Assembly: GCA_965261345.1 (NCBI GenBank)
Contig: OZ253449.1
Span: 2,221,826 to 2,285,825 of the forward strand
Length of the DNA: 64,000 bases
Direction of reading: 5' to 3'
DNA from: Chloroflexota bacterium
Lineage (GTDB): Bacteria; Chloroflexota; UBA11872; VXNJ01
Numbering within the stretch: the stretch's first letter is position 1; the number at the start of each line of letters is the position of its first letter. The position numbers and the translations under genes are program-made. The notes beneath the pieces are model-generated. The model did not search any database, was not told where the DNA came from, and saw only the letters and a list, made by a program, of their open reading frames with translations. Positions 12,259 through 62,826 of the stretch are shown here, one piece after another.

Positions 12259-13022
12259 GGATCTAGCAGCCACAGTTTCGCCCGACCGATCGGGTCGCTC
12301 GGGACTCGAAGATGACTGGGGTGCGTAATGGTTCCCGCCACCGCCCCAGCTTGGCCACTCCAACCATTCCACCAACCCGGGGCCTTCGCCCATCGCTCCC
12401 CTCGGCACCAGGGAGGGATCGAACTCATCCTCGATAACCGGTTCGATTGGAGCATTAAACGAGGGATGCTCGGCAAAGTCGGGTATTTAAAGTGACCACA
12501 TAGGGTTTCGCCCAAGAGGGTCAGCGGCAGGCGCAGCGGTCGCTTTGGGAGGTCGCTGGGGATTGAAAGATTGCGCCGGTTCAGCGCTTGGATTGACCAC
12601 GGCGGCCATCTGGGTCGAGTCGGCGGTGGGGTTCGAGTTATCGACTACAGACTGCCCGGTCGCAAATTCAACGTCGATTAGGGATCGGTGCAACTGGCCC
12701 ACAGTACGGATCGGGCAATCGCTGCGGCCGGCAGTGCCAGGGCGCCTCCGTCGGGGGCCGAAATTGTGCGTTTGATGGGCACTTGCAACATTTGCGGCAT
12801 ATTTTGCGCAGTTGGCTGCGGCCTGAACGGTAGCCGATGCGGTTTACCCTCGGGCGCGGTGCAATTGAACTCAGTTTTTTGGAAGATCGGTCCGAATAAC
12901 TTGTACCGGGCGGCATGGTGCGAATAATTTTTGACCAGTGGCGCTGGGACCCCAACTGTCGGGTTGATCGCCACCGGAATCGGGACGGCTCGGTACGAAC
13001 GCTTGAGCGGGTGGCCGGACTG

Positions 13023-46425: not shown

Positions 46426-47073
46426 TTGTTTTGCCAACTGCGTTCGATGTGGATCGGCTGCCATGTCGCACCAGTTGAACCCGGCACGATTGCTAACCGG
46501 GTCCAATTCTGGGATCACTGCTTAAGGTTCAACCGGTGCGGCGGCGCTTTGTGGCAAGTTGCTGGCATTCGCCGGCTCGGCCTAATTTCGGTCACCGGAA
46601 GTTCCGGTGCGGCGAGCGGTGCCGACCGTCTGCCGCCGCCGGGCCACGGCCATCAGGCACTGCACTGTGACAATCAGACATCGTCGGTGGTGCTGAACTA
46701 CGGTGCCTGCAATTCGGTCTGGATGCTTGACGACTTCACCCCCGACAATGGTGCCACGCGTCTGGTGCCGGGAACCCACCGGCTGCTGGCGCAGCCGCGC
46801 GATCATCTGGCCGACCCGCACCCGGGCCAGATATTGGCCCTCGGCCGGGCCGGCACGGTGATCGTTTTAAATGGCATCATCTGGCACGGCGGCACCGCCA
46901 ACCGCACCAGCCGGCCGCGGCGAGCCATCCACTCTTTCTGGCTGGCGCGCCAGATAGAGCAGCAGACCGACCAGGCACACTGGATTTCGCCCGCCGCTAT
47001 CGCCGAATTGAGTCCGGCCCTGCGCTATTTGGTTCACGTATTGAACCGGCCGCCGGATCGCTGTGCAGTATAA
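46426..47073 (+). pseudogene. Truncated duplicate of the downstream PhyH-family dioxygenase gene (C-terminal ~140 codons conserved, N-terminal half replaced by unrelated sequence)
   Basis: nt ~46636-47040 are ~90% identical to 47491-47907 (PPGHGxQALHCDNQ…LVPGTHRL…WHGGT.NRTSRPRRAIH). The N-terminal part of the ORF has no PhyH similarity. Confidence 0.55.
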
Positions 47074-47907
47074 ACGACAATTACAATACTTGGGTCAGGT
47101 TGACATGGCCGCCGCCCGGCAGGCGCGCAACTTGAAGGTGGAGGGGCAGAGATGGATACGAAGACAGCGTTGGCCGAACTGGGCGTTAACGATGAGGCGT
47201 TGACGGAGGAAGAAAAAAGGGAGCTCGACGAGCGGGGCTACGTGATTTTTGAAGATCTCTTCGGCGGTGAGCAACTGGCTGCCATGCGGCAGCGATTTGA
47301 TCGGGTGCTTGCGCTTGAGGGTGGCGACGGTAGGGAAGCTAATGCCGAGGCCAATGTCGGAAGACTGGCCAATCTCGTCGAAAAGGGCTCCGAATTTGCT
47401 ACCTGTTACTCTCACCCCAAGGTTCTGGCCGCGATTTGGCACGTCATCGGCGGCGAGATGCATTTGGGCTCCCTCAATGGGCGCGCGGCGCCGCCGGGCC
47501 ACGGCAATCAAGCACTGCACTGTGACAATCAAAAATCGGCGGTGGTGCTGAACTACGGTGCCTGCAATTCGCTCTGGATGCTTGACGACTTCACCCCCGA
47601 CAACGGTGCCACGCGTCTGGTGCCGGGAACCCACCGGCTGGTGGCGCAGCCGGGCGATCATCTGGCCGACCCGCTGGCCGAGCACCCGGACCAGATATTG
47701 GCCCTCGGCCGGGCCGGGGCGGTGCTCGTTTTTAATGGCATCACCTGGCACGGCGGCACCGTCAACCGCACCAGCCGGCCGCGGCGAGCCATCCACTGTT
47801 TCTGGCTGGCGCGCCAGATTAAGCAGCAGCTGATCCAGGCTGATTGGCTCTCCCCGGCCACGATCGAAAACCTCTCACCGGCGGTCCGCTACGTCCTGCA
47901 CGTATGA
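46636..47907 (+). repeat. Tandem direct duplication (~410 bp units at 46636-47040 and 47491-47907, ~90% identity) covering the 3' two-thirds of the PhyH gene
   Basis: Direct nucleotide comparison of the two segments; they run colinear through both stop codons. Confidence 0.7.
47152..47907 (+). CDS. Phytanoyl-CoA dioxygenase (PhyH)-family Fe(II)/2-oxoglutarate-dependent oxygenase
   Basis: 251 aa. His-x-Asp…His facial triad context (ALHCDNQ … WHGGTVNRT…RR). Confidence 0.8.
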   Translation: MDTKTALAELGVNDEALTEEEKRELDERGYVIFEDLFGGEQLAAMRQRFDRVLALEGGDGREANAEANVGRLANLVEKGSEFATCYSHPKVLAAIWHVIGGEMHLGSLNGRAAPPGHGNQALHCDNQKSAVVLNYGACNSLWMLDDFTPDNGATRLVPGTHRLVAQPGDHLADPLAEHPDQILALGRAGAVLVFNGITWHGGTVNRTSRPRRAIHCFWLARQIKQQLIQADWLSPATIENLSPAVRYVLHV

Positions 47908-47938: not shown

Positions 47939-48297
47939 TTGCGTGATCGGGGCTGGGATCGTCTCGGGGCTTCGATTGGCTACCACCTGGCCTGCGAGGA
48001 CGTAGGCGATGTTGTGGTCGTGGATCGGTCGCCACTGCCTGGTTGGGGATCGAGCGGTTGCGCGGCAGGCGGGTTCAGGCTGCAATTTACGGACCCGGCC
48101 GATATCGCCTTTTCGCGCTGGAGCGCTTGCTGCGATTTGAACGCGACACCGGAGTCAGCCCGCAGCTTCGCCAGTACGGATACGTGTTCTTGGCCCAGAG
48201 CCCGGCGCGCCTGGCTGCCCTGACGGCGATCAACGCCGCCCAGCGCGGCGCCGGCCTGACCGAAGCGGCGAGGCCGCTACGACCAGCTAAGGGTTAA
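47939..48297 (+). pseudogene. FAD-dependent oxidoreductase (DAO family) N-terminal fragment, frameshifted and truncated
   Basis: Across two frames the region reads VCVIGAGIVGASIGYHLA.EDVGDVVVVDR…GSSGCAAGGFRLQF… then …LERLLRFERDTGVSPQLRQYGYVFLA…, the first ~120 aa of a DAO-type flavoenzyme. It ends where the IS relic begins. Confidence 0.55.
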
Positions 48298-48299
48298 TC

Positions 48300-49420
48300 G
48301 CATCCGCAAATGTTATGGCCTGCGTTCGTATTGCCGCAGGCGCAAAGACCGCGGGCTGCTGCAGCCGCGCGCGATGGCCGCGCGGCTGGGGATCCCGGTT
48401 GGTTCGCTGGGATACTGGCGACGCCGAGACCGGCTGATCGGCCACGTTGCCGACGATAGAGGCATGCGGCTCTAGGAGTGGCCCGACAATACGCCGGTCC
48501 CGCCCACCCGGAAACCAAGGAAGGAAGGTCGCGACAACGACGCCGTTGTCGTCGACATGATCAGCGAGGTGCAGTGTGCAACCTGAGTTTTGGTCTGCGG
48601 CCTTCGGGCATGGATGAACTTCTGGCGCGCGCCCATGGCGGCGACCATCCTCCCGAACTGGTGGGCCCTGAACTCAAGAGCCGTCGTCGGTCATGACGGC
48701 TTCGAGCTGCCAGCCCCGGGCCGACGGATCCCTGGCCACCCTGCGCGCCGGTCTGGACGTCCAGCGGGCGGACGGATTGCGCGGGGTTAGGTGCAGCTCG
48801 GCCCAGAGGTAGGAGGAAGCAACGTCGATGGCGCTGTGCCGCCACAGGGTGCCCCCGGTGCCGGAGAGGAGGCTGATTTGGAAGCAATCAAATTGCACCA
48901 GCGCGCCGGGACGATCGACAGGTGGCGCTCGGGTTCCGGTTCGGGACGCTGCGGTCCCGGCGGGGCGGCAGAGCCGGCCACCAGCGCCAGGCGCCTGGCG
49001 CGGTCGCTGCGCCCATGGCGCTTCAGCACCCGCCGGACGCCGGCGGCCGAGACCCGTAGCCCGCCCCACTCCGCACGTTGCGGCTCGGCCGCGGGCCGGA
49101 CCGGTCCCAGGCCGGGGTTGCCGCTCGCGAACGCCACGATGCGCTGCTCGAACAAGGGTGAGATGGAGTTCGGCATCTGCGCGCGGCGGCGCTCTCGGGG
49201 GCGCAGGAGGCCGGGGCCGTAGCTATCGGCCCGGGACTTCCAGCGGTAGAAGGCGGAGTGATGTATCCCGATTACCCGGCGGGCGTCCCTGACGCTGCCG
49301 ATTCCCCTGGCCAATGCCAAAGTGCGCAGGCGGTAGCGGTATATTGCGTCTTCGGGGGTCATGCAAAGAGGCCTTTGCTGCGTTTGGTTTCACAGCAGAA
49401 TGCCTTGCGTGGCCCCTACG
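48300..49420 (-). mobile_element. Degenerate IS481-family insertion sequence (frameshifted, 3'-truncated transposase)
   Basis: Minus-strand ORFs 48787-49362 (HTH N-terminus: …IGIHHSAFYRWKSR…FEQRIVAFASGNPGLGP…) and 48674-49069 (start of the DDE integrase core: LVQFDCFQISLLSGTGGTLWRHSAIDVASSYLWAELH…MTDDGS) lie in different frames. The rest of the catalytic domain is missing. Confidence 0.55.
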
Positions 49421-49464: not shown

Positions 49465-50997
49465 CTAGGCGAGCGCCAGTTTGCGGTGCCGCCGATCGTA
49501 TGTCGAGGCCAGCTTGACCAGCAGGGCCTTTCGCATTCGGCCCAGCGCGGGGGCATGGGCCGGATCGCCGGCCAGGTTGACATGCTCGCCGGGGTCAGCC
49601 TTGCGGTCGTAGAGGATCTCGTTGCCCTCGCCGTCAATCCAGTACTTGTTTAGTTTGTCGATGAGCGTGAGCACCGAGAATCCGCCCAGCGAATCGCGGG
49701 TGGCGCCGGGAACCGCGTAGCCAATCTGCGCATTGCCGGGATCGAAGTACTCCACCAGCACACTGTCCTTGCCCGGTCCGTCGGCACTGGCGAGCTGCCC
49801 CCAAAGCGAGGCCCCGTCGACCGGCGCCGGGATCGGCAGCGAGAGGGCCTCCAGCAGGGTGGGCACGAGATCTACAGCTTCGAAGAATCCGTCAAATGTT
49901 CGCCCGCCGGGCAGGCCACCCGGCCAGCGCCAGACCATCGGTACGTGCAGGCAGGAATCGTAGTGGGCCTGGTGCTTGCCCATGGTGTAGTTGTCGCCAC
50001 AGGCGTCGCCGTGATCTGAGTAGTAGACCACGATCGTGTTGTCGAGTTGGCCGGAGCGCCGCAAATGCTCGATCACGCGCCCGCAATGGTGATCGACCAT
50101 CGTGCAGGAAGCATAGTAGTACCGTCGGAATTGGATTACCTCTTCCTCCATGCGCGGAAGCAGGCGCTCGGCGATCTGGCGCACCATCACCGGCTTGTCG
50201 TCCAATTCGCCGGGCACCACGTCGGGCCGCGGCACGCTTGCGGCCGGATAGCGATCGACATATTCGGCCGGCGGATTGCAGGGCGGGTGCGGAAGATAAA
50301 AACCGGCGATGGCGAACCACGGAGTGTCACCGGCGGCGTCGATGAACCCAATAGTCTGGTCGGCCACCCAGGCGCTGTAGGAGAGCTCCTCGGGAGCCTC
50401 GAAATCCCAATATTGCTCGCTGCGATCGCCGGTTACCGGGTGCGGCACGCCGACCTTGGCTTCCATGCCCGGGGCGACCTGACGAATCCAGCGGATGTAG
50501 TCGTCGGGGTAGCAGCCCGGCCCTTCGGCGTTAACGTGCACGTCGAAGCCGTAGCCGGGATGCGGGCGATCATAGTTGCGCGAGCTATGCGGCAGGAAGT
50601 GCAGTTTGCCCAGGTTGCCGGTCCGGTAGCCGGCATCGGAGAGGATCTGGGCAACCGTCAACTCGTCCTCTGAGAGTGCGATGCCATTGGAAGTAACGCC
50701 GTGATTGCGGGGGTAGCGACCGGTCAGCAGGGTGGCGCGCGACGGCGCGCAGACGGGATTGTTGACGTAATTGCCGGTCACGTTGACTCCCTCGGCCGCC
50801 AGGGAATCAATGGCCGGCGTCTGCACGTAGCCGTCGGAATTTACGCCCAGGCAATCGAAGCGCTGCTGGTCTGACGTGAGGAATAGGACGTTGGGGGGGC
50901 GTTCGACCATTGCGGTGCCTCCGGTTATCCGGGCAATCGGCGTTCGTTTGGCCATTATTGGAAAAATCGATTGCCAACGGGGCGGAAGACGTTGCAA
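49465..50997 (-). CDS. Sulfatase (arylsulfatase family)
   Basis: NVLFLTSDQQRFDCLG…NPVCAPSRATLLTGRYP (C-x-P-S-R formylglycine motif) and the sulfatase C-domain. The likely start is the internal MVERPP (~50910). Confidence 0.85.
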   Translation of the reverse strand: MQRLPPRWQSIFPIMAKRTPIARITGGTAMVERPPNVLFLTSDQQRFDCLGVNSDGYVQTPAIDSLAAEGVNVTGNYVNNPVCAPSRATLLTGRYPRNHGVTSNGIALSEDELTVAQILSDAGYRTGNLGKLHFLPHSSRNYDRPHPGYGFDVHVNAEGPGCYPDDYIRWIRQVAPGMEAKVGVPHPVTGDRSEQYWDFEAPEELSYSAWVADQTIGFIDAAGDTPWFAIAGFYLPHPPCNPPAEYVDRYPAASVPRPDVVPGELDDKPVMVRQIAERLLPRMEEEVIQFRRYYYASCTMVDHHCGRVIEHLRRSGQLDNTIVVYYSDHGDACGDNYTMGKHQAHYDSCLHVPMVWRWPGGLPGGRTFDGFFEAVDLVPTLLEALSLPIPAPVDGASLWGQLASADGPGKDSVLVEYFDPGNAQIGYAVPGATRDSLGGFSVLTLIDKLNKYWIDGEGNEILYDRKADPGEHVNLAGDPAHAPALGRMRKALLVKLASTYDRRHRKLALA

Positions 50998-51554
50998 ATA
51001 ACCGCAGTCGAGAGCTTTGTCTATCGCCTCCCTGGCCGATCTTTCGTCGGAGCCTTAGTCTACCCCGACGAAGGCTTGACCGGCCCGGGTGAAGCCACCC
51101 TGATGGAGCGAAGCGGCAGCGTCCGGGCCGCTTTGATGGAAATGGGCGAAATCGTGGCGGAATGGATCCCATGGCCTCGGAAAACGTCTGGTGGCGGCTT
51201 TTCTTGGGTGATCGACGGCGCAGTGGGCCGGTGACCGCATCGGCCATCGACGCCATTGACGTGGCCGTCTGGGATATCCGTGGTCAGGCCCTCGGGGTTC
51301 CCATCCATACGCTGCTTGGAGGTGCGCTGCGCGCTGCGGTGCGGATGTACAACCATGCGGTCATGCCCGAACCGGTAGCGGTGGCGGATGCCCTCGGCCC
51401 GCTGCTGGAGGAGGGTTGGACGGCGGCTAAGTTCATCGCCTCACCTTCCGACCCCACCGGCGTGCCCAACCGCGAACGGTTCGATCCGCGGGCCGCAGTC
51501 CGGCGCGGCGCGGCCGCCACGGCGGCTGCCGCCCACCACCTGATTCTGAGCTAA
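50971..51554 (+). pseudogene. Enolase-superfamily (MR/MLE-type) N-terminal gene fragment, frameshifted
   Basis: Two overlapping frames encode …ITAVESFVYRLP… and …ASAIDAIDVAVWDIRGQALGVPIHTLLGG.LR…VRMY…, which resemble the capping domain of mandelate-racemase/muconate-lactonising enzymes. No barrel domain follows. Confidence 0.5.
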
Positions 51555-51586: not shown

Positions 51587-52291
51587 TTGGACAGCCTGCC
51601 GGTTAGAGCCATGGGCAATCCAAATCTTGACCACAACATCCGTGATCTCTTGGTATCGCTTGACGATGGCAGCAAGGTAACCGCGGGGTTCCTTTCCCAC
51701 TACAACCTGACCGGCCAGCTGGAGCGCTGGGGCTTTCCAACCTCAGAGGTACTGGTACTAGAAGACGGCACCCTAACCCATTTCTATCAAAGAGGGGCAG
51801 TTGACTTCCACTACCTGGGCAGCGGCTGGATTGTGGAAAGAAGACTTGCCTGCGACTACGTCGGTGGGGCAGCAGAGGGATCCACCGACCAGGGAGTAGA
51901 AACCGATCTTCTAAATCCTCATCCCGGTACGCTCTTAGGTCCCTGGGGATACAAGGTATCCGACTTTGCCATCGATGGCACCGAGGTTGGCTTTGCCGAA
52001 TTCTTTGTTGCCCTGGGCGGAGTCTCGGTCTCCGGCTTGCCCAAGATCGATGCCAGGGAGTACGTGGATCTTCCCGGCAGACTGCATGCCCCAGGGAGAA
52101 CCTACGGCTTTATCCGCCAGTACTTCCAGGCGGCGGTGCTAGAGTTTCATCCCAATGACGAGCGAACCCCGGTAATGCTGACCCTTCTGGGCGATACCCT
52201 GCGCGGCGTTCTGGTGCCCGACTTTGCCGAGCATCCTCCGTTTAACGCTGCCATAGAGCTGGTAATCGGAGACGGGTATGCGCCCTACTAG
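51587..52291 (+). CDS. LGFP-repeat protein (paralogous to the C-terminal domain of the 7269-9704 protein; no signal peptide, possibly a gene remnant)
   Basis: NPNLDHNIRDL…ERWGFPTSEVLVLEDGTLTHFYQRGAVDFH…YGFIRQYFQAAVLEF…TLLGDTLRGVLVP aligns residue-for-residue with residues ~600-800 of the large surface protein. Confidence 0.6.
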   Translation: MDSLPVRAMGNPNLDHNIRDLLVSLDDGSKVTAGFLSHYNLTGQLERWGFPTSEVLVLEDGTLTHFYQRGAVDFHYLGSGWIVERRLACDYVGGAAEGSTDQGVETDLLNPHPGTLLGPWGYKVSDFAIDGTEVGFAEFFVALGGVSVSGLPKIDAREYVDLPGRLHAPGRTYGFIRQYFQAAVLEFHPNDERTPVMLTLLGDTLRGVLVPDFAEHPPFNAAIELVIGDGYAPY

Positions 52292-52369
52292 GTGCCGAGG
52301 GCGGCACCGGATGGTCGACTTGCGCCGTTGACTGCTGTCAATATCGAAAAACCTGCAACATGAAGACGA

Positions 52370-53164
52370 TCACGCCGGGTTAATTCGACCGGTCAACAGG
52401 CCGAGCATCGCATCAAATCCCGCCAGTTGCATGCGGATTCGAGTTTCCAGCTCAATGACCCCCGGCGTTTCGAGCGTTACGCCTCGATCGGAGAGATTGG
52501 TCATTACGTAAAAGGGCAACGGCCAGTTCTCCCGATCGCGCATGTATTCGGCAATTTCTTCGGGAGTTTCCTCGTCTTCGTCGTCATCGGACCGGTGGAC
52601 GACGCCGCGATCGACCGGCATCTCATCGACTTCTGGCTTGGAAAATATGGGCCCTTCGCGTGCAACCGCCGCGACCAGGACATCCGACCAGGCATTGGGC
52701 ATGCTTGTGAAACAGTAAAAGCCGTCTTCAACCGGATCCTCATGGGCGTCGATCCAAAGATCAAGGCGCTCCTGCCCAATCATTTCCAGGCCCAAGCGAG
52801 ATTCGGGGCTGTCGCCCAGTTTGAATGTTCGGTTCACATCCTGGCCATCTACGTTCTCGCGGGTGCCAAGGTCAAAACCGGTCGGGTTTACGCAGGGCAA
52901 GACCTTGAATCGAATCTCAGGCCAGTTACGCCAACGCTGCTCCTCTAAAAATTGCAGGACAGCGTGCACGGGCGCCGGTTCATCACCATGCGTTCCGGAA
53001 TATAAGCCCACCAAGTACCGGGGGTCGTTGCCGGGCCGCAGCTCCAACCGAATCAAATCAAGCTGGCGTTCAGGCAATCGATGACGATGGATCGTTAGCC
53101 CGGGCGTTCCTTCCAACGCCTCGTAACGGGCCAGCAGGGCGGCGTAATTAGTAACTCTGGGCAT
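52370..53164 (-). CDS. Succinylglutamate desuccinylase/aspartoacylase (AstE/AspA, M14-like zinc hydrolase) family protein
   Basis: GTHGDEPAP zinc-binding motif, LPCVNPTGF, NRTF, and an acidic C-terminal region. Paralog of 54696-55466. Confidence 0.8.
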   Translation of the reverse strand: MPRVTNYAALLARYEALEGTPGLTIHRHRLPERQLDLIRLELRPGNDPRYLVGLYSGTHGDEPAPVHAVLQFLEEQRWRNWPEIRFKVLPCVNPTGFDLGTRENVDGQDVNRTFKLGDSPESRLGLEMIGQERLDLWIDAHEDPVEDGFYCFTSMPNAWSDVLVAAVAREGPIFSKPEVDEMPVDRGVVHRSDDDEDEETPEEIAEYMRDRENWPLPFYVMTNLSDRGVTLETPGVIELETRIRMQLAGFDAMLGLLTGRINPA

Positions 53165-53390
53165 GAAATATTTGGCTGATCAAACTTTGGCGCTCGATTA
53201 TCGAAAGGAGTTGGCGCGAAATACGGGTCGGAATGGATGCGTGCGACGTGGCAGGTTCAAACGCGCCCGGCACCCCAATGGACATAGAATTCGGCCGGGA
53301 AATGGTTTGGTCACCGGCAAACGCCAATTGCCAACCCAACCCAGGCTGTGAGCTGGTTATCCGAAGAGGCCAAGATTGCTTCTGCGGTCG

Positions 53391-54497
53391 TCAAACCGCC
53401 CACTTGGCAACGGCACCGGGATCGAGTTCCAACCCCAACCCGGGTTTGTCGTGAAACGGGGACCACTGCCCGTTTTTTTGTTGAGGAAACTCGGTGTACC
53501 AAATCCGATCGACGGTCAAATTGGTGTTCATGTATTCGACTACTTTTAGGTTTGGGGCAGCACAGCATACGTGCAGGTGAACCAGCTGGACCGAGTGCGG
53601 CGCGACCGGTAAGTTGGCTGCGTGGGCCAAGTGTGAAATCTTGAGCCATTCCGTAATGCCGCCGCAGCGGCCCACATCCGGTTGACAGATGTCGGCCCCG
53701 CCGGCGGCGATCAACTCGGCAAACCCAAATTTGGTGTATTCGTGCTCACCCGTAGCAACCGGGATATTGACTGCTTCGCGGACCCGAGCAAGCCCGCGGA
53801 TATCGTCGGCGATGAGCGGCTCTTCGTACCAGCCCACGTTGAACTCTTCAAACTCCTTGGCCATGTAGATCGCCTGTTTGGCGTAATACCCGTTGTTGGC
53901 GTCTATATATATTTCGACGTCATCGCCGACCGCCGAACGCACCGCCGCCAGGCGGGCAATGTCTTCACGTTCGGACTGTCCAAAATCCTTGCCCACCTTC
54001 ATCTTGAGGCGGGGAATGCCCTGGTCGACATAATCGACCATTTCGGCAATCAGTTCCTTTTCGGTGAAATTGGTCCAGCCGCCACTCCCGTAGATCGGAA
54101 GAGATTCCTGGTAGGGACCAAGCAGCTTGAAGAGCGGCAATCCTAGCGCCTTGGCTTTTAGATCCCAAAGCCCAATATCAACCGCCGATATCGCGCAGAT
54201 CGCCACGCCCTTTCGACCGTATCCGCGAACATGCCAGAACATGTCGTTCCAGAGTTGCTCGATGTTGAATGGATCCTTGCCGATGAGCAGCTTGCGAAAT
54301 CCTTCATCGATCGCCTGGCGAACACCCGGATAGGCGAGCCCGATCCCCAGGCCTTCCACGCCCCCGTCGGTATGGATGTGCACGAACACCTGCCCGCGTC
54401 CGCCGGCCCATTTCGGCGGGTCGGGGATAGTGGCATCCTGGATTGGGCGAGCGTGTGGATAAAAGAGCTGGGTGGTGGTTACATCGGTAATTTGCAC
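53391..54497 (-). CDS. Mandelate racemase/muconate lactonising enzyme-family protein (enolase superfamily)
   Basis: Capping domain (…AISAVDIGLWDLKAKALGLPLFKLLGP…) and barrel metal ligands (KVG…IDANNGY…EEP…ATGE). 368 aa. Confidence 0.85.
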   Translation of the reverse strand: MQITDVTTTQLFYPHARPIQDATIPDPPKWAGGRGQVFVHIHTDGGVEGLGIGLAYPGVRQAIDEGFRKLLIGKDPFNIEQLWNDMFWHVRGYGRKGVAICAISAVDIGLWDLKAKALGLPLFKLLGPYQESLPIYGSGGWTNFTEKELIAEMVDYVDQGIPRLKMKVGKDFGQSEREDIARLAAVRSAVGDDVEIYIDANNGYYAKQAIYMAKEFEEFNVGWYEEPLIADDIRGLARVREAVNIPVATGEHEYTKFGFAELIAAGGADICQPDVGRCGGITEWLKISHLAHAANLPVAPHSVQLVHLHVCCAAPNLKVVEYMNTNLTVDRIWYTEFPQQKNGQWSPFHDKPGLGLELDPGAVAKWAV

Positions 54498-54695
54498 GGT
54501 GGCTGATCCGGCCCTAGCAGCGAAATGAAATGCGCCCCAATTTCAACATCAAAAGCGATTGCTCGGGCCCGCCCGCAGCGTTTCTACGGAGAAGGGCCGC
54601 TACAAAACTCCCGGACGTTAAGACAGAGGAACCGCCACTTGCGCAATACACAAATTAATCGTGGGCACCGAATCGTGGGAGCGTTGGCCGGCGCC

Positions 54696-55466
54696 TTAGT
54701 TACCGCTGACCAGATTCAATAGCTCCGTGTAGGCTGCCAGCTGCATATTGACTCGCGTGTCCAGGTCAATTACCCCGGGGGTTTCCAGGGTTACCGATCG
54801 CGGGCTTATCTGGGCCTCAACGTGAGTTGACAAGCCCCATTGGTCTGTTTCCCGGCTTCGTTGCTGGCGCGCTAGGCGGCGCGCCCGATTCAGCGCCACG
54901 ATGCCGTTTTCAACTTTCATCTCGTCAACTTCCTCACGCGGGTAGATCGGGCCCTCCCTGGCGACCGCGGCAACCAACCGCGGATCCCAGGCCGATGGAA
55001 GTCGCGAGAAACAGTAAAACCCGTCTTCAACCGGGTCTTCGTGGGCGTCGATCCAAAGATCGGTGGGTTCTACTCCGATCAGCACTAAGGCGGCCAGAGC
55101 TTCGGGGCTATTGCCCAACTTGAATGTGCGATTTACGTCCTGGCCCTTAGCGTTTTCACGCGTGCCAAGGTCGAAACCGGTCGGGTTGACGCAGGGCAAC
55201 ACCCGCATTTCCAGATTGGGCCAGGCCCGCCAACGCTCTTCTTCGAGGAATTGCAACGTCGCATGAACCGGGGCCGGCTCATCGCCGTGGCTGCCGGCGC
55301 TCAGGCCTACCGTGTGCTTGATCGGGCCCTGGGAGACCAGCGTTAGCCCAACCAACTCGATTGACCGGTCGGGCATTCGAAATCTCGAGATCGTCACCCC
55401 CGGCAGCGTTGCCAGGCGTTCATAGCGAGCCAAGAGTTGGGCGTATTTGACCGGTCGCGCCATCAA
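54696..55466 (-). CDS. Succinylglutamate desuccinylase/aspartoacylase (AstE/AspA) family protein, paralog
   Basis: GSHGDEPAP, LPCVNPTGFDLGTRENAKGQDVNRTFKLG. ~60% identical to the 52370-53164 product over the catalytic region. Confidence 0.8.
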   Translation of the reverse strand: MMARPVKYAQLLARYERLATLPGVTISRFRMPDRSIELVGLTLVSQGPIKHTVGLSAGSHGDEPAPVHATLQFLEEERWRAWPNLEMRVLPCVNPTGFDLGTRENAKGQDVNRTFKLGNSPEALAALVLIGVEPTDLWIDAHEDPVEDGFYCFSRLPSAWDPRLVAAVAREGPIYPREEVDEMKVENGIVALNRARRLARQQRSRETDQWGLSTHVEAQISPRSVTLETPGVIDLDTRVNMQLAAYTELLNLVSGN

Positions 55467-56211
55467 GATCCTTTTTCGCGGGCCGATTGACGGGTAGATT
55501 ATCCGTGTACGGGAATCGAGCGCGCTCGGTCAAATTACCGCGTCGGCGATCTGAACGGATGGGCTGGGCCGGTCACATTGACGTGCATCCTGCTCTTTTT
55601 ACCGGAATTCCATTGCTCGAACGCGGTGCCGACCGGGAATGGGGACCGGATCCCGAATACGTGGCCTACAGGCAGGACGCGAGCGTACTAATTCCTTGGC
55701 CCGGCCGCAGATCAAGGTCAAGCTGGCGGCAGGTAGCTTTGCGTATTTAGTGCGCGTTGACCGCCACCGCAATATGTTTTGGGATACCAGCAGGATAAAT
55801 CACCCAAGACAGCGAGCCTCTTAACGGAATCGCGCCCACGCGCGGGTCCAGACCGCCGAGGCCAGCGACGGCGCTGTCCAACGGGCCAGCAGGCGGGCTA
55901 GGGCGACCGGAGTCGGGACAGAAGCGGAAATTTCCGCGCATGCGTGCGACGGCCGGCATTTGCACTAAATGGCTTCGGGTTGGCGGGGCCATCTGCGAGC
56001 CGGTAAATATCATAGGCGGTCGTTGTCAGTGACAAAATAATTTTTCCAACCCCGAACGCCGCAGCTGGGAATTTCCGGTCCCGGTTGCCCGGCCGGCGTC
56101 GCATCCTGATGACCTGGAATCAGGCCGGCGCGGCAGCATGAATTTCTTGCTGCTGCAAGCGGTCGAAATCGACTCCGGAACCTGAGCGCCGATCGGGCGT
56201 CGCGGTGGGTG

Positions 56212-57258
56212 TTAGGCGTTCCATTCCAAGGCGACGCCGAGATAGGATTCCTTCTCGTTTAGGAGTCCCAGGTAAGCGCGCTCGATCTGCCGCGGAGGCA
56301 GTCGGTGTGAGATCAACGGTTCGATCTGCAACCGCCCGCGGGTGGCCAAATCCAGGACGGTCGACAGGTTGTGAATAGTCGATTCGTCGCTGGCGGTCTG
56401 CGGCCAGAACGGTATCAACCACTGCAGTGAACCGCGCAACTTGAGGCCGCGCCGGTGAACGTCTCGCAGTAGCGGGGTCAGATCGACCACATGCTCGCGC
56501 CGCGGCGATCCCAAGAGGACCAGCTGTCCGAAGCTGCGCACGAAAGGATAGAGCCCGCCGAGGACGGCTGCCTCGCCGACCGCGTCGACGGCAATGTCGA
56601 GCCCGTTCGGTGCGCCCAGGCCGGCAATGCCGGCGCCCACTTGTTGCGCGACTGGTTCGGCGATTGCTTCGACGCCGATCATCGTTGCCAGTTCGCGTCT
56701 CCGGCTGGAAGGATCGATCCCGATCACCCGGCAGCCGGCCAGCTGGTAAAGTTGCGCGGCCATGTTGCCGATCAATCCCAGCTCCCAGATCCCAACCCGA
56801 TCGTTGAGGCGCGGGCGTGAATTGGAAAGAGCGCTGAACGCTATCAGTGGCATCATGCACGCGGCCGCAACTGCCCCGTCCAACCCTTCGGGAACGCGAG
56901 CGAGCAGCTGTGTGCCCGGAGTTCCCGCGTCGGGCACCCGCAGGTGCTGAAAATCCTGGTGCCTGCTCGAGCTAAATACCCGCTCACCAATCTCGAATCC
57001 GGACACCGCGGCACTCTTGGCGACGATGCGTCCGACGTTGGCATACCCGGCCGCCCAGGGGTAGGCGCACCAGGAACCCGGGACCGTTACGTTCTTGTCC
57101 AATCCGGTGAAATTGGCCAGTTCGGTGCCGGCCGAGATGAACGTGAATTCGGTCTCGACCGTCAGTTCGTCTGGCCCCGGCCGGTCGGCGATTTCTATCG
57201 CATCAAGGAATACCTGACCACGTCCCGCGACGAGCACTCTAACAGCCTGCATGCTCAA
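56212..57258 (-). CDS. Medium-chain dehydrogenase/reductase (MDR, alcohol-dehydrogenase-like)
   Basis: GroES-like N-domain and Rossmann domain (GIWELGLIGNMAAQL…GCRVIGID). Tandem paralog of the next gene. Confidence 0.8.
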   Translation of the reverse strand: MSMQAVRVLVAGRGQVFLDAIEIADRPGPDELTVETEFTFISAGTELANFTGLDKNVTVPGSWCAYPWAAGYANVGRIVAKSAAVSGFEIGERVFSSSRHQDFQHLRVPDAGTPGTQLLARVPEGLDGAVAAACMMPLIAFSALSNSRPRLNDRVGIWELGLIGNMAAQLYQLAGCRVIGIDPSSRRRELATMIGVEAIAEPVAQQVGAGIAGLGAPNGLDIAVDAVGEAAVLGGLYPFVRSFGQLVLLGSPRREHVVDLTPLLRDVHRRGLKLRGSLQWLIPFWPQTASDESTIHNLSTVLDLATRGRLQIEPLISHRLPPRQIERAYLGLLNEKESYLGVALEWNA

Positions 57259-57309: not shown

Positions 57310-58359
57310 CTATTGCCTCCAAATGAGCGCGACGCCGCTGTAGTGCTCCTTGTCATTTAGAAGACCCTGGTAGGCGCGCTCTATCTGCTGCGGCGGCATC
57401 CGGTGCGAGATCAGCGGTTCTACCTGCAGGCGACCGCGGGCGACCAGGTCCAATACCGTTTCCAGGTTGTGCAAGGTCGACTCATCGAAGGCGGTTTGCG
57501 GCGTTAGCGGGATCAGCCATTCGAGCGATCCGCGAAGCTTTATTCCGCGCCAGTGGATATCTGACAACAGCGGATTCATGTCGGCGACGTGCTCGCGGCG
57601 TGGTGAACCCAACAGGGTCACCTGGCCGAAGCGGCGCACGAACCGATGGATCTGGGCAAGGATTGCCGATTCACCAACAGCATCGATCGCGATATCCAAT
57701 CCGTCGCAAGCTCCCAGGCCGCCCATCTGGGCCTTAACGTCGGCCGGTTCCGGCGAAGCCACCCGCCCGATCCCGACGCCCTGCGCCAGGTCGCGTCTAA
57801 AGCCCGCCGGATCGATGCCGATCACTCGGCAGCCGGCCAGTTGGAAAAGCTGCGCTGCCATGTTGCCGACCATTCCCAGGCCCCAGATCCCGACGGTGTC
57901 ATTGAGGCGCCGGGGGGTGTTGGAGAGCGAGCTCATCGCCACCAGCGGCATGCGGCAGGCGGCGGCGACCGCCGGGTCGAGGTCGTCGGGGACCTTTGCC
58001 AGCAGCGACCCGGCCACGCTCACGCCCAGTCCGGGACCACCGTGGGTGACGAAGTGGACCTGTTGGTGTTTGGCGAAAGAAAAGACCCGGTCGCCGACCC
58101 CAAAGTCTTCGATCTTTTCACCGACTTTGATCACACGGCCGACATTGGCGTACCCGGAGGGCCAGGGATATTCGCACCAGGACCCTTTCTCGTAGACCTG
58201 CGGGGTCAGGGCGGTGTAGTTGGCCAGCTCCGTCCCGGCGGAGATAAACGTGGCTTCGGTCTCAACCATGACCTCGCCGGGACCGGGCCGGTCGGCTATC
58301 TCGATTTCTTCCAGCAGGACCTGGTTCTTACCTGGCACCAGTACCCGATTTGTGCGCAT
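57310..58359 (-). CDS. Medium-chain dehydrogenase/reductase (MDR), tandem paralog
   Basis: Same architecture (GIWGLGMVGNMAAQLFQLAGCRVIGIDP). ~55-60% identical to 56212-57258. Confidence 0.8.
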   Translation of the reverse strand: MRTNRVLVPGKNQVLLEEIEIADRPGPGEVMVETEATFISAGTELANYTALTPQVYEKGSWCEYPWPSGYANVGRVIKVGEKIEDFGVGDRVFSFAKHQQVHFVTHGGPGLGVSVAGSLLAKVPDDLDPAVAAACRMPLVAMSSLSNTPRRLNDTVGIWGLGMVGNMAAQLFQLAGCRVIGIDPAGFRRDLAQGVGIGRVASPEPADVKAQMGGLGACDGLDIAIDAVGESAILAQIHRFVRRFGQVTLLGSPRREHVADMNPLLSDIHWRGIKLRGSLEWLIPLTPQTAFDESTLHNLETVLDLVARGRLQVEPLISHRMPPQQIERAYQGLLNDKEHYSGVALIWRQ

Positions 58360-58908: not shown

Positions 58909-59715
58909 ATGATGGCCAAGATCGCCGCTGAGCTGTTCACCGTCCGTGAACACCTGGGCAATCAGCAGCAACTGCATGAAACGGTTCATCGCCTGGCCGG
59001 GATTGGCTTTGAGTACGTGGAGTTGGCGGCGGTCGCGGCGGTCGACGGCCCAGACGCTGACACCAGTCCGGCAACGCTGCGGCAAATGCTCGACGACCAC
59101 GGGCTTCGGGCCTCAAGCGCCCACCGGCGCTTTGGAAACCTGCGCGACAACACCGCGGAGGAACTTGATTACCTCCAAACCCTGGGCTGTTCGATGGTGG
59201 CGCCACCGGTCATCTTCGATGTTTACGATTACCGCGATTTCGACGGTTACCGGCGCTTTCTCGAAGAAGCACAACCGGTCCGCGAAACAGTGGCCGCCGC
59301 CGGCATCGATTTTGCCTACCACAACCATTCGCACGAGTTTGTGTATTTTGCCGGCACCAACGCCATGGAATACATGATCGAAAAGAGCCAAATGCAGATG
59401 GAGCTGGACACCTACTGGACCGCGATTTCCGGCGCTGACCCGGCGGAGATGATCTCACGCCTGAAAGGTCGAATCCGTTATCTGCACTGCAAGGACGCAC
59501 AGGTCTTTCCGACCGACGATCCGGATTTGTTTGCCATGCCCGGACCCACCTTCGCACCGGTCGGCGAGGGCCTGCTGAACTGGGGCGCAATCCTGGCCGC
59601 GGCGGCTGAGGCCGGAACCGAGTACTACATCATCGAGCAGGATGTTTGTCGGCGCGATCCGTTCGACTGCCTAGCGTCTTCATTCCAGTTCCTTTCGGAG
59701 GAAACCAAAACCTAG
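58909..59715 (+). CDS. Sugar phosphate isomerase/epimerase (xylose-isomerase-like TIM barrel)
   Basis: Family-typical …GFEYVEL…, …HNHSHEF…, …LHCKDA… segments. 268 aa. Confidence 0.8.
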   Translation: MMAKIAAELFTVREHLGNQQQLHETVHRLAGIGFEYVELAAVAAVDGPDADTSPATLRQMLDDHGLRASSAHRRFGNLRDNTAEELDYLQTLGCSMVAPPVIFDVYDYRDFDGYRRFLEEAQPVRETVAAAGIDFAYHNHSHEFVYFAGTNAMEYMIEKSQMQMELDTYWTAISGADPAEMISRLKGRIRYLHCKDAQVFPTDDPDLFAMPGPTFAPVGEGLLNWGAILAAAAEAGTEYYIIEQDVCRRDPFDCLASSFQFLSEETKT

Positions 59716-61560: not shown

Positions 61561-62826
61561 TTGACCGCAAGTGGCCAAATCACCATCTACGGCATTCAAT
61601 GGTGCCCAGACTGCCGCCGCTGCCGCCAATTTTTGGGCGAGCATGGCATTGGCTTTCGCTGGGTGGATCTCCTCGAGCAGGCTTCCGCCGAGCAGGAGTT
61701 CGCCCAGCTCGACATTGGTCGCCCGGTGCTGCCTACGGTGCTGCTCGCGAATGGGCGGGCGTTGCTGCGGCCGAGCAATGCCGAATTGGCCGACGCGCTC
61801 GCAATCGATACCGATCGTGAGCGGCGCTATTGGCCCCTGATCATCATCGGAGGGGGTCCAGCCGGGCTCGTCGCGGCGACATTTGCCGCCCGCGATGGTT
61901 TCGACACGCTGGTAATTGAGCGTGAACAGGTGGGAGGCAACGCCAATCTCTCCGGCGAAGTTGAGAACATGCCCGGTTTCCCGACGGCGATAAGCGGATT
62001 TGAGCTAAGTGACCGCTTGCGCGCCCAGGCCCGTAAAGCCAACGTCGAGATGATCCAGGCCGCCAACGTTGTTCGAATCGACAGCCTGGGGCCGTACCAC
62101 ACGGTGGTAACCGAGGACGGTGAAGAATACAGCTGCTTTGCCTTAATCATTGCGACCGGCAGCACATATCGTCGCCTGCAGATCCCCGGTGAGTCCAAAT
62201 TGAATGGTTCCGGTGTCTACTACTGTGCGGCCACCGACGCGTATTTCTATACCGGAGAACACGTGGCCGTAGTTGGCGGCGGCAATTCGGCCGCCGAAGC
62301 GGCGCTGGCACTAGCTAGCTATGCCGGGAAGGTCTCGATGCTCGTGCGCGGTGAAAACCTCACTGCCAACGCCATCATCGCCGAACGGCTATTGGAAATC
62401 GCCAATATTGAAGTTATCTACGGAGTTGATCTGCACGAATTTCGCGGCGACGGCCAACTCGAAGCGGTTCGTGTGCGCGACATGCAGACCGATCAACTGC
62501 GCGATATTGCGGTCCGCGCGGCCTTCGTGTTTATCGGGATGCGACCAAATTCCGAATTCCTGCGCGAGGGTCGGGTTGAACTGGACCGACGGGGCTTTAT
62601 CTGCACCGGCAGCGACGTATCCAGCCGCGGCGACCTGGGTGCGGACCCCGACGAATTGGCCGATTTTGCGACGGCCGTGGCACCTGGGATATTCGAGTCT
62701 TCGGTTCTGGGAATATTTGCCGCAGGCGACATACGAAAAAACAGCTCAAAATTCGTTGCCACCGCCACCGGCGAGGGTGCCGCAGTGGCGATGTTGGCCA
62801 GCCAATACCTGCGCAACATGGCCTAG
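61561..62826 (+). CDS. Glutaredoxin-like domain fused to thioredoxin-reductase-like flavoprotein (atypical: single Cys in place of CxxC)
   Basis: N-terminus ITIYGIQWCPDCRRCRQFL (Grx/NrdH-type CPxC). Then FAD motif IIIGGGPAGL, an NAD(P)-type GGGNSA motif, and FAAGD. The canonical TrxR active site CATCD is replaced by CAATD. Confidence 0.8.
   Translation: MTASGQITIYGIQWCPDCRRCRQFLGEHGIGFRWVDLLEQASAEQEFAQLDIGRPVLPTVLLANGRALLRPSNAELADALAIDTDRERRYWPLIIIGGGPAGLVAATFAARDGFDTLVIEREQVGGNANLSGEVENMPGFPTAISGFELSDRLRAQARKANVEMIQAANVVRIDSLGPYHTVVTEDGEEYSCFALIIATGSTYRRLQIPGESKLNGSGVYYCAATDAYFYTGEHVAVVGGGNSAAEAALALASYAGKVSMLVRGENLTANAIIAERLLEIANIEVIYGVDLHEFRGDGQLEAVRVRDMQTDQLRDIAVRAAFVFIGMRPNSEFLREGRVELDRRGFICTGSDVSSRGDLGADPDELADFATAVAPGIFESSVLGIFAAGDIRKNSSKFVATATGEGAAVAMLASQYLRNMA

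Follow-up and report, generated by a model that had tools for sequence, protein, structure and literature searches.

A hydrolase, enolase-superfamily enzyme, hydrolase gene trio of Chloroflexota is most likely a small lineage-specific cassette of sugar-acid breakdown

The gene trio and the question it raises

Two paralogous zinc hydrolases encoded on either side of an enolase-superfamily enzyme raise the question of what chemistry the three could perform together. The genes belong to a Chloroflexota bacterium (UBA11872; VXNJ01; assembly GCA_965261345.1, contig OZ253449.1) and lie in a 64,000-nt stretch of DNA (hereafter, the window, to whose positions all coordinates refer). An earlier note made on this DNA had read them as a candidate N-acyl-amino-acid racemase accompanied by two deacylases of the AstE/AspA family, possibly in a dedicated accessory catabolic module. 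The list of open reading frames (ORFs) confirmed the array, its coordinates, and its orientation as the note had given them, i.e., three minus-strand ORFs running the same way: H1 (54696..55466; 256 aa), E (53391..54497; 368 aa, GTG start), and H2 (52370..53164; 264 aa). Here we report that this trio is most likely a small lineage-specific cassette of sugar-acid breakdown.

E matched both MR_MLE_N (65 bits) and MR_MLE_C (220 bits) in Pfam, which agrees with the assignment of the note to the mandelate racemase (MR)/muconate-lactonising enzyme (MLE) superfamily. The hydrolases are paralogues, also as the note had claimed (57% identity, E=5e-107), and matched AstE_AspA_cat with their N-terminal ~65 residues only (29 and 32 bits against a cut-off of 25). 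Judged by these matches, H1, E, and H2 can be taken as strong family members and not as chance ORFs. Labels such as L001 and L170 are used below for the compared loci, and P0001 and P0033 for database proteins. P0001 is a database twin of H1 that starts one codon later, at ATG 55463, which is probably the true start of H1.

Subgroup placement of the middle enzyme

The NCBIfam scores of E were highest for acid-sugar dehydratases, i.e., TalrD/GalrD (231 bits, cut-off 500), arabinonate dehydratase (202, cut-off 650), galactonate dehydratase (163, cut-off 311), rhamnonate dehydratase (154, cut-off 393), gluconate/galactonate dehydratase (GlcD/GalD; 146, cut-off 750), and mannonate dehydratase (ManD; 132, cut-off 550), and none of these curated cut-offs was reached. 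E appears to be dehydratase-like, yet outside every named acid-sugar dehydratase specificity group (TalrD/GalrD, AraD, GalD, RhamD, ManD, and GlcD/GalD). Its scores are far under every equivalog cut-off, and therefore no substrate can be transferred to it from the named dehydratases. The models for N-succinyl-amino-acid racemase (NSAR)/OSBS and for dipeptide epimerases gave scores 3–5 times below those of the dehydratases and all far under cut-off (L-Ala-D/L-Glu epimerase, 73 and 29 bits; DgcA, an N-acetyl-D-Glu racemase, 55; OSBS, 17–52). Among PDB sequences, the best matches were 3cyj (uncharacterised, from Rubrobacter; 212 bits), the TalrD/GalrD 2pp0 (194 bits), and the 3,6-anhydro-L-galactonate cycloisomerase 5xd7 (193 bits), and the first MLE-subgroup entries appeared at ~101 bits.

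A pairwise alignment with 2pp0 equated K165, K167, D199, E225, E251, D274, and H301 of E with K195, K197, D226, E252, E278, D301, and H328, respectively. We take these seven positions to be the KxK motif, the three metal ligands, and the His-Asp dyad of the MR subgroup, and all seven were invariant across 32 orthologues of E, which belongs to a large and highly conserved orthologue group of Chloroflexota. In NSAR/OSBS enzymes and dipeptide epimerases, a second catalytic Lys is located at the end of strand 6 and the third metal ligand is an Asp, whereas E has Asp274 at the strand-6 position, Glu251 as the third metal ligand, and no second Lys of that kind.

The AlphaFold2 model of E (pLDDT, a measure of local model confidence, 83.7) was poor at residues 301–316, directly after H301. 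Its 50 best PDB fold matches comprised only MR-subgroup dehydratases, cycloisomerases, and uncharacterised relatives (TM-score 0.79–0.86), and no NSAR, OSBS, or Ala-Glu epimerase (AEE) structure was among these top 50. The characterised relatives 2pp0, 5xd7, and the L-talarate dehydratase 3cb3, along with the Rubrobacter protein 3cyj, have the same fold as E (TM-score 0.79–0.85) at ~30–35% identity, and the TalrD/GalrD group has a catalytic pattern identical to that of E (K-x-K, Asp/Glu/Glu, Asp-His dyad), from which E is set apart by its shortfall against the equivalog cut-offs (231 vs 500 bits, etc.). To our knowledge, none of the characterised TalrD/GalrD-type enzymes is flanked by M14 hydrolases, unlike E.

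With a two-domain fold, Asp/Glu/Glu ligands, and KxK plus an Asp-His dyad, E has the features of the MR subgroup, and is predicted to be a Mg2+-dependent enolase-superfamily enzyme of that subgroup, placed by sequence and model with the acid-sugar dehydratases and cycloisomerases. It would be equipped for Mg2+-assisted abstraction of the alpha-proton from a carboxylate, and in this it resembles the beta-eliminating dehydratases. NCBIfam scores, aligned residues, and fold matches ruled out NSAR, OSBS, Ala-Glu epimerase, and muconate cycloisomerase as candidate identities.

The N-acyl-amino-acid racemase that the earlier note had seen in the middle gene did not survive this placement: E falls among acid-sugar dehydratases by hidden Markov model, sequence, and fold, the very outcome that had been named in advance as contradicting the racemase. 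The model built on it, i.e., an NSAR-like racemase with two enantiomer- or acyl-specific deacylases for the conversion of D- to L-amino acids or for their salvage, is very unlikely indeed. It has in common with the NSAR plus acylase route the logic of an enolase-superfamily enzyme joined to an N-acyl-amino-acid hydrolase; H1 and H2 resemble N-acyl-amino-acid deacylases, their number is what two specificities would need, and both enzyme types use alpha-substituted carboxylates. Nevertheless, E lies outside the MLE subgroup, which is the home of every known NSAR/OSBS enzyme, and has a His-Asp dyad in place of the second Lys, in line with the low DgcA and OSBS scores and the fold matches given above. 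In addition, E orthologues are widespread without any deacylase, and the contexts around the trio and in the recurrent loci described below are of carbohydrate type (GH3, sulfatase, medium-chain dehydrogenase/reductase (MDR), lactonase-family, and mutarotase genes).

The two flanking hydrolases

Seven residues (H60, E63, R103, N112, R113, H142, and E228) were invariant across 40 aligned homologues, H1 and H2 among them. The active site of carboxypeptidase A consists of H69/E72/H196, R127, N144/R145, and E270, with which the residues of the hydrolases were equated by motif order, not by structural superposition. On this alignment, H1 appears to carry the full M14 pattern, i.e., an HxxE...H zinc site (H60/E63/H142), a carboxylate clamp of an Arg (R103) and an Asn-Arg pair (N112-R113), and a catalytic Glu (E228), and H2 has the identical catalytic residue set. 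Given that the Arg and the Asn-Arg pair that hold a free carboxylate are retained, both enzymes should hydrolyse an amide bond adjacent to a carboxylate, of either an N-acyl-amino-acid-like or a C-terminal type. By inspection, the N-termini contained no hydrophobic stretch and no evident signal peptide, and the two M14-type zinc amidohydrolases are probably cytoplasmic.

The AlphaFold2 model of H1 (pLDDT 91.9) matched the Shewanella 'putative metallopeptidases' 2qvp, 3b2y, and 3ieh (TM-score 0.72–0.74, 23–25% identity) and Francisella REP34 (4oko; 0.75). Lower scores were obtained with bacterial cytosolic-carboxypeptidase-like proteins (~0.65), with the AstE/AspA-family structures 3cdx, 2qj8, 3na6, and 6twm (0.48–0.60), and with MpaA (0.58). 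The family of 2qvp, 3b2y, and 3ieh is named N-acetylornithine deacetylase in NCBIfam (NF052223), and SO_3749 was validated genetically as an N-acetylornithine deacetylase gene (PMC3219624). Proteins of the SO_3749 type are the closest match of H1 and H2 in both sequence and fold and, like them, are single-domain and M14-like with a length of ~270 aa, and they deacylate an N-acetyl amino acid (PMC3219624). H1 and H2 differ from them in scoring only 48–49 bits on NF052223 against a cut-off of 400, in having no arginine-biosynthesis context, and in being encoded by a duplicated gene; an identity as ArgE-type or SO_3749-type deacetylases was rejected on these scores and on the 23–25% identity.

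They were likewise rejected as true AstE/AspA proteins. The match to AstE_AspA_cat covered profile positions 4–69 of 192 only (29–32 bits), the aspartoacylase model gave 20 bits against a cut-off of 180, the TM-scores were lower, and the chains are shorter (256–264 aa vs 314–329 aa for the AstE/AspA-family structures). The AstE/AspA architecture combines a catalytic domain with an extra C-terminal domain. MpaA was rejected as an identity on its models (31–34 bits against a cut-off of 157), on the TM-score of 0.58, and on peptide-recycling genes not being found nearby. Because the nearest folds lie there and all curated models were missed widely, the two proteins would be better labelled M14-type amidohydrolases of the SO_3749/REP34/MpaA cluster. 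The AstE/AspA label of the earlier note is thus a loose one: it was right in pointing to M14-like zinc hydrolases, and the family itself is not supported (TM-score 0.48–0.60 vs 0.72–0.75; partial Pfam match).

The relationship to MpaA brings in another explanation, in which the locus recycles murein peptides or D-amino-acid peptides in the manner of MpaA and YcjG of Escherichia coli, with H1 and H2 cutting bonds of the gamma-D-Glu-diamino-acid type and E acting as a peptide epimerase derived from the MR subgroup. The Lys/His pair of mandelate racemase performs a 1,1-proton transfer, and the corresponding pair of an MR-subgroup enzyme would in principle be capable of the same. This enzyme class has been reviewed (PMC8142540). 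By sequence and fold, MpaA ranks among the closest relatives of the hydrolases, and a pathway in which an enolase-superfamily epimerase acts after it is well established (PMC2954226). The earlier note had called the arrangement of the trio undescribed, which holds in part: an M14-like zinc amidase and an enolase-superfamily enzyme were already known from one catabolic route (PMC2954226), though YcjG is of a different enolase subgroup. We consider murein-peptide recycling very unlikely here. YcjG is an L-Ala-D/L-Glu epimerase of the MLE subgroup (Lys/Lys), whereas E is a dehydratase-like member of the MR subgroup (Lys/His-Asp) that scored 29–73 bits on the Ala-Glu epimerase models vs 231 on the dehydratase model, has no Lys on strand beta-6, and carries Glu in place of Asp as the third metal ligand. 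Both hydrolases fail the MpaA cut-off, the TM-score with MpaA is below those of several other matches, and no peptide transporter, LdcA-like, or PepD-like genes were seen nearby.

H1 and H2 have a single strongly divergent segment, at residues ~184–208 of H1 (window ~54843–54917) and ~184–213 of H2 (window ~52526–52615). It is Arg-rich with a net charge of +2 to +3 in all H1-type orthologues, and Asp/Glu-rich with a net charge of -7 to -9 in all H2-type orthologues, where it includes, in H2, the stretch DDDEDEETPEE at the position at which H1 is basic. The H2-type proteins are highly acidic overall (net charge -14 to -23). The opposite charges suggest that the two enzymes may differ in the charge of their preferred substrates or that H1 and H2 may be in contact.

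Conservation of the trio

The H1-E-H2 trio was found in five related Chloroflexota lineages, represented by the window with L170/L171, by L001–4 with L008, by L168, by L169, and by L005–7, and the conservation in related genomes that the earlier note had asked of its array is therefore real. L170/L171 come from a strain that is 98.7% identical to the window and was obtained in another sample. Within the clade, E orthologues are 83–88% identical, and those of H1 and H2, each within its own set, are 67–77% identical. Separate orthologue sets at this level place the duplication of H1 and H2 before the trio clade, and both copies have been retained with intact active sites.

The trio survives with three different flank arrangements, and the breakpoints lie immediately outside it. 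L001, L168, and L169 have a common block comprising a thiamine pyrophosphate (TPP) enzyme, an FAD oxidoreductase, a metallo-beta-lactamase (MBL)-fold protein, an MDR, H1, E, H2, and then downstream oxidoreductases. The latter are a gene of the 2-hydroxyacid-dehydrogenase family (in L001, a formate dehydrogenase) followed by a pyridine-nucleotide-disulfide oxidoreductase, which has a glutaredoxin domain in L001 and L169. The flanks in the window and in L005–7 differ from this block, and in L005–7 a major facilitator superfamily (MFS) transporter gene and a small ORF lie between H1 and E, while E and H2 remain adjacent. Synteny profiles of the window against L001, L005, and L008 made with tblastx were swamped by high-GC noise; the one genuine match outside the trio was a glutaredoxin-fused thioredoxin-reductase-like gene (window 61561–62826 (+) vs L001 14370–15698 (-), ~66% identity). 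This gene lies on opposite sides of the cassette in the window and L001, a sign of local inversion or rearrangement that left H1-E-H2 intact.

Genomic contexts of the wider hydrolase and E families

The contexts of the wider M14 family were compared over 80 genome loci. Those from Verrucomicrobiota, Nitrospirota, and others show housekeeping surroundings and no MR/MLE genes, the neighbours including, by eye, a biotin synthase-like gene and a glycine dehydrogenase-like gene of ~1000 aa. The M14 relatives of Chloroflexota and one Poribacteria genome (32–46% identical) have sugar-acid-type neighbours. A dehydratase-like MR/MLE gene lies directly downstream of the M14 gene on the same strand in L014, L021, and L087; these three belong to three different subfamilies, none of them epimerase-like and none that of E, and the same-strand order of a hydrolase and then an MR/MLE gene recurs with four different MR/MLE subfamilies. 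An MR/MLE gene was also found one or two genes from the M14 gene in L009, L010, L174, and the P0033 locus, and L174 contains genes for an SGL lactonase-family protein and an MDR dehydrogenase as well.

The second recurrent context of the M14 gene has the order FucU mutarotase, M14 hydrolase, Amidohydro_2, Amidase, and PhyH. A divergent FucU/RbsD mutarotase gene is located upstream of the M14 gene in L172 and L173, and PhyH genes are two or three genes away from it in the type I loci L018, L172, and L173. In relatives of ~40% identity, the start of Amidohydro_2 overlaps the M14 stop by 4 bp (L173, 4786–4789; L018, 10780–10783), and in L009 (10792–10795) the M14 stop overlaps the end of an opposite-strand gene instead. 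FucU-M14-Amidohydro_2 is a tight, recurrent cluster.

The only recurrent neighbour of E orthologues that are not linked to the hydrolases was a second, rhamnonate-dehydratase-like MR/MLE gene in tandem. In L089, L090, L093–L095, L099, L100, L103, and L107 it precedes the E orthologue (67–78% identity) on the same strand, with a gap of ~65–110 bp. The upstream tandem protein is ~35% identical to E, and the tandem pair is absent from the window. A sulfatase gene directly follows the E orthologue in L113/L114.

A proposed pathway and its rivals

From gene context, we tentatively propose that H1 and H2 form a front end, specific to their clade, that frees an amide-blocked or N-acylated carboxylate for dehydration by E. 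In one small Chloroflexota lineage, the two hydrolases would have been added to E in the upper part of the pathway, with an amide-masked or N-acylated acid derived from a sugar as their substrate. One candidate substrate class is aldonoyl- or aldaroyl-amino-acid amides, the cleavage of which would free the carboxylate required by E; another is N-acyl-2-amino-2-deoxy-aldonates, in formal terms a kind of N-acyl amino acid. In the next step, Lys167 or His301 of E would take up the alpha-proton, and elimination of the beta-hydroxyl would yield a 2-keto-3-deoxy acid. This product might be processed by the tandem dehydrogenases MDR1 (56212..57258, minus strand) and MDR2 (57310..58359, minus strand), in parallel to the sugar-acid routes of non-phosphorylative type that have been proposed in SAR202-type Chloroflexota. 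The paralogous hydrolases, with their oppositely charged segments, may serve two substrate variants or act jointly.

Elements of this scheme have precedents. The COG4948 paralogues of SAR202 have been proposed to be dehydratases paired with dehydrogenases in sugar-acid catabolism, a view put forward for cultured SAR202 (PMC10444878), and OngB, a D-aminoacylase-like enzyme acting on GlcNAc1A, is an amino-acid deacylase scaffold recruited for an N-acetyl-amino-sugar acid (PMC9537276, PMC12017989). The idea of a dedicated accessory catabolic module with a deacylase-type step, as the earlier note had it, is in line with this scheme, and its racemase half is unsupported.

A bolder version of the front-end proposal appears quite improbable. 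In it, the M14 clade would be a hitherto unrecognised de-N-acylase, or an aldonoyl-amino-acid amidase, that serves non-phosphorylative sugar oxidation: once a sugar has been oxidised to its acid, the hydrolase would remove the acyl group from an N-acyl-2-amino-2-deoxy-aldonate, and beta-elimination to a 2-keto-3-deoxy acid would follow on an MR-subgroup enzyme such as E. Its de-N-acylase form has the chemistry of OngB and OngC, by which GlcNAc1A is de-N-acetylated and then beta-eliminated to a 2-keto-3-deoxy acid (PMC9537276, PMC12017989), although neither of these is homologous to M14 or MR/MLE enzymes. If true, the route would be a non-homologous counterpart of OngB/OngC for oxidised chitin sugars, and an MR-subgroup 'dehydratase' would for the first time have an alpha-amino or amide-derived substrate.

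Coupling of the hydrolases to E is favoured by the persistence of H1-E-H2 in five lineages under three flank arrangements, by the intact catalytic residues of both paralogues, and by the recurrence of MR/MLE, mutarotase, Amidohydro_2, lactonase-family, and MDR genes beside this M14 clade. An adjacent MR/MLE gene in at least four of nine independent context lineages corresponds to P ~7e-5 to 2e-3 at MR/MLE densities of 2.8–7%, with the count of independent lineages set after seeing the data. The E proteins linked to the hydrolases also have 14 substitutions, known by sequence only, that are common to all of them and rare in 28 unlinked orthologues (including L54, Y56, C271, A294, which is Phe in 28/28 unlinked sequences, and S302 beside His301).

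Several other observations weigh against coupling. No H homologue was detected in any of 41 metagenomic loci with E orthologues at 59–80% identity (27 of them with at least 1 kb of downstream and 26 with at least 1 kb of upstream sequence), and because 0/41 carry one, most genomes must use E without them. The trio has a single evolutionary origin, with wider synteny in three of the five lineages, and its conservation is in part simple inheritance. Moreover, chance adjacency is raised because the genomes are rich in MR/MLE paralogues, which make up 1.3–3.5% of genes in SAR202 group I Chloroflexota (PMC6946804) and number 4–80 in SAR202-type Chloroflexota (PMC6946804, PMC10444878). The gaps within the window trio (198 and 226 bp; 82–264 bp across trio loci) are long for an operon. 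An Rfam scan of 52000–56400 at E-values up to 1 revealed no RNA element in them, and a consensus promoter/terminator scan of the trio region, in itself uninformative, gave counts at or below the shuffled expectation. We also know of no MR-subgroup enzyme that acts on an alpha-amino or alpha-acylamino substrate.

Much of this would be expected if no pathway linked the three genes, i.e., if E were one of many dehydratase paralogues with nearby dehydrogenases, H1 and H2 were independent scavenging peptidases or deacylases (taking, for instance, peptide fragments or N-acyl amino acids from dissolved organic matter), and their adjacency were inherited from one ancestor. E orthologues outside one clade never have H neighbours, the E family forms more than 120 clusters at ≥67% identity vs 16 at ≥53% for the H family, and the trio is of single origin with synteny common to L001, L168, and L169. 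The long gaps, in which Rfam found nothing and no shared regulatory element was found, and the housekeeping contexts of the M14 family in Verrucomicrobiota, Nitrospirota, and others point the same way. We nevertheless regard this explanation as somewhat less likely than the front end: the trio persists through three flank rearrangements with breakpoints directly outside it, the same-strand order of hydrolase and MR/MLE gene occurs with four MR/MLE subfamilies, and the hydrolase recurs with mutarotase, lactonase-family, and MDR genes.

Flanking genes

The neighbours that the earlier note had reported are present, namely tandem MDR dehydrogenases and, where it had seen a sugar-phosphate isomerase, a xylose-isomerase-like TIM barrel. 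MDR1 has the same orientation as the trio and lies 745 bp upstream of H1, and MDR2 is its tandem paralogue (62% identity). By the logic of a dehydratase plus a dehydrogenase, MDR1 is a possible pathway partner of E. An MDR gene also precedes H1 in L001, L008, L168, and L169, where it is of a different subfamily from MDR1 (24% identity for that of L001); the upstream MDR was hence rejected as a conserved partner of the trio. In L170 (506–2248), an insertion sequence (IS) element of ~1.74 kb with a DDE_Tnp_1_4 transposase (479 aa) is located between MDR1 and H1, and the empty site is at window ~56211–56215, an insertion polymorphism between close strains (98.7% identity). As this insertion shows, co-transcription of MDR1 and H1 is not a requirement. 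The TIM barrel gene (58909..59715, plus strand) matched AP_endonuc_2 and, weakly, an IolE-like model; it is peripheral and divergent, and its membership is uncertain.

On the other side of the trio, an arylsulfatase-like sulfatase gene (49465..50997, minus strand) is peripheral, 1.4 kb beyond H2. An MR/MLE remnant (50971..51554, plus strand) begins inside the 5' end of this opposite-strand sulfatase ORF. It retains the N-terminal domain only (MR_MLE_N positions 87–117) in two reading frames, and looks like a pseudogene left by rearrangement. Together with a helix-turn-helix (HTH)-only transposase fragment (48787–49362, minus strand), this frameshifted remnant agrees with the decaying zone that the earlier note had described. 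Short overlapping ORFs (47939–48297, plus strand) lie near the transposase fragment, one of which resembles by eye a fragment of an FAD-dependent oxidoreductase. The region 47939–49362 is consistent with a rearrangement scar between the sulfatase and two adjacent PhyH-family dioxygenase ORFs (46426–47907, plus strand), the first of them apparently truncated at the N-terminus. A GH3 glycosidase gene is, like the two PhyH dioxygenases, further out from the trio.

Between the MR/MLE remnant and H2, a 234-aa ORF (51587–52291, plus strand) had no match in Pfam or NCBIfam. A paralogue with 48% identity is located 42 kb away (9021–9674, plus strand), and a third fragment at 12415–12486 (minus strand); they constitute an unannotated repeated gene family.

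Relation to known systems and significance

The closest known theme is that of the COG4948 expansions of SAR202 with their NAD(P) dehydrogenases (PMC6946804, PMC10444878). These likewise involve Chloroflexota MR-family enzymes with many close orthologues in marine metagenomes, and the E family resembles them in its variable neighbourhoods, tandem MR/MLE paralogues, adjacent dehydrogenases, sulfatase, and GH3. In contrast, the H-E-H cassette is limited to one small clade. PMC6946804 had nothing on M14 hydrolases under 'peptidase' or 'carboxypeptidase', and literature searches on DUF2817 and on M14-MR/MLE cassettes of sponge or SAR202 Chloroflexota returned nothing usable. Each gene of the trio is a new member of a known superfamily, and the combination is like that of MpaA and YcjG at the superfamily level only. 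By its gene context, the trio fits the sugar-acid theme of SAR202-type Chloroflexota with an added M14 step, a step not found in the literature searched.

Marine and host-associated Chloroflexota have dozens of enolase-superfamily paralogues, almost all without a known substrate, which are thought to be relevant to the turnover of hard-to-degrade dissolved organic carbon. For at least some of these paralogues, the recurrent pairing of one M14 clade with dehydratase-like, lactonase-family, and dehydrogenase genes narrows the substrate search to amide-bearing or N-acylated sugar acids, and the trio is a small, clonable three-gene set for substrate assignment within an expansion of orphan paralogues. 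The amino-acid racemisation route can be set aside whether or not the hydrolases are coupled to E. If they are not, the locus would be an ordinary accessory catabolic patch; if they are, an amide-cleaving entry step would be added to the non-phosphorylative sugar-acid pathways.

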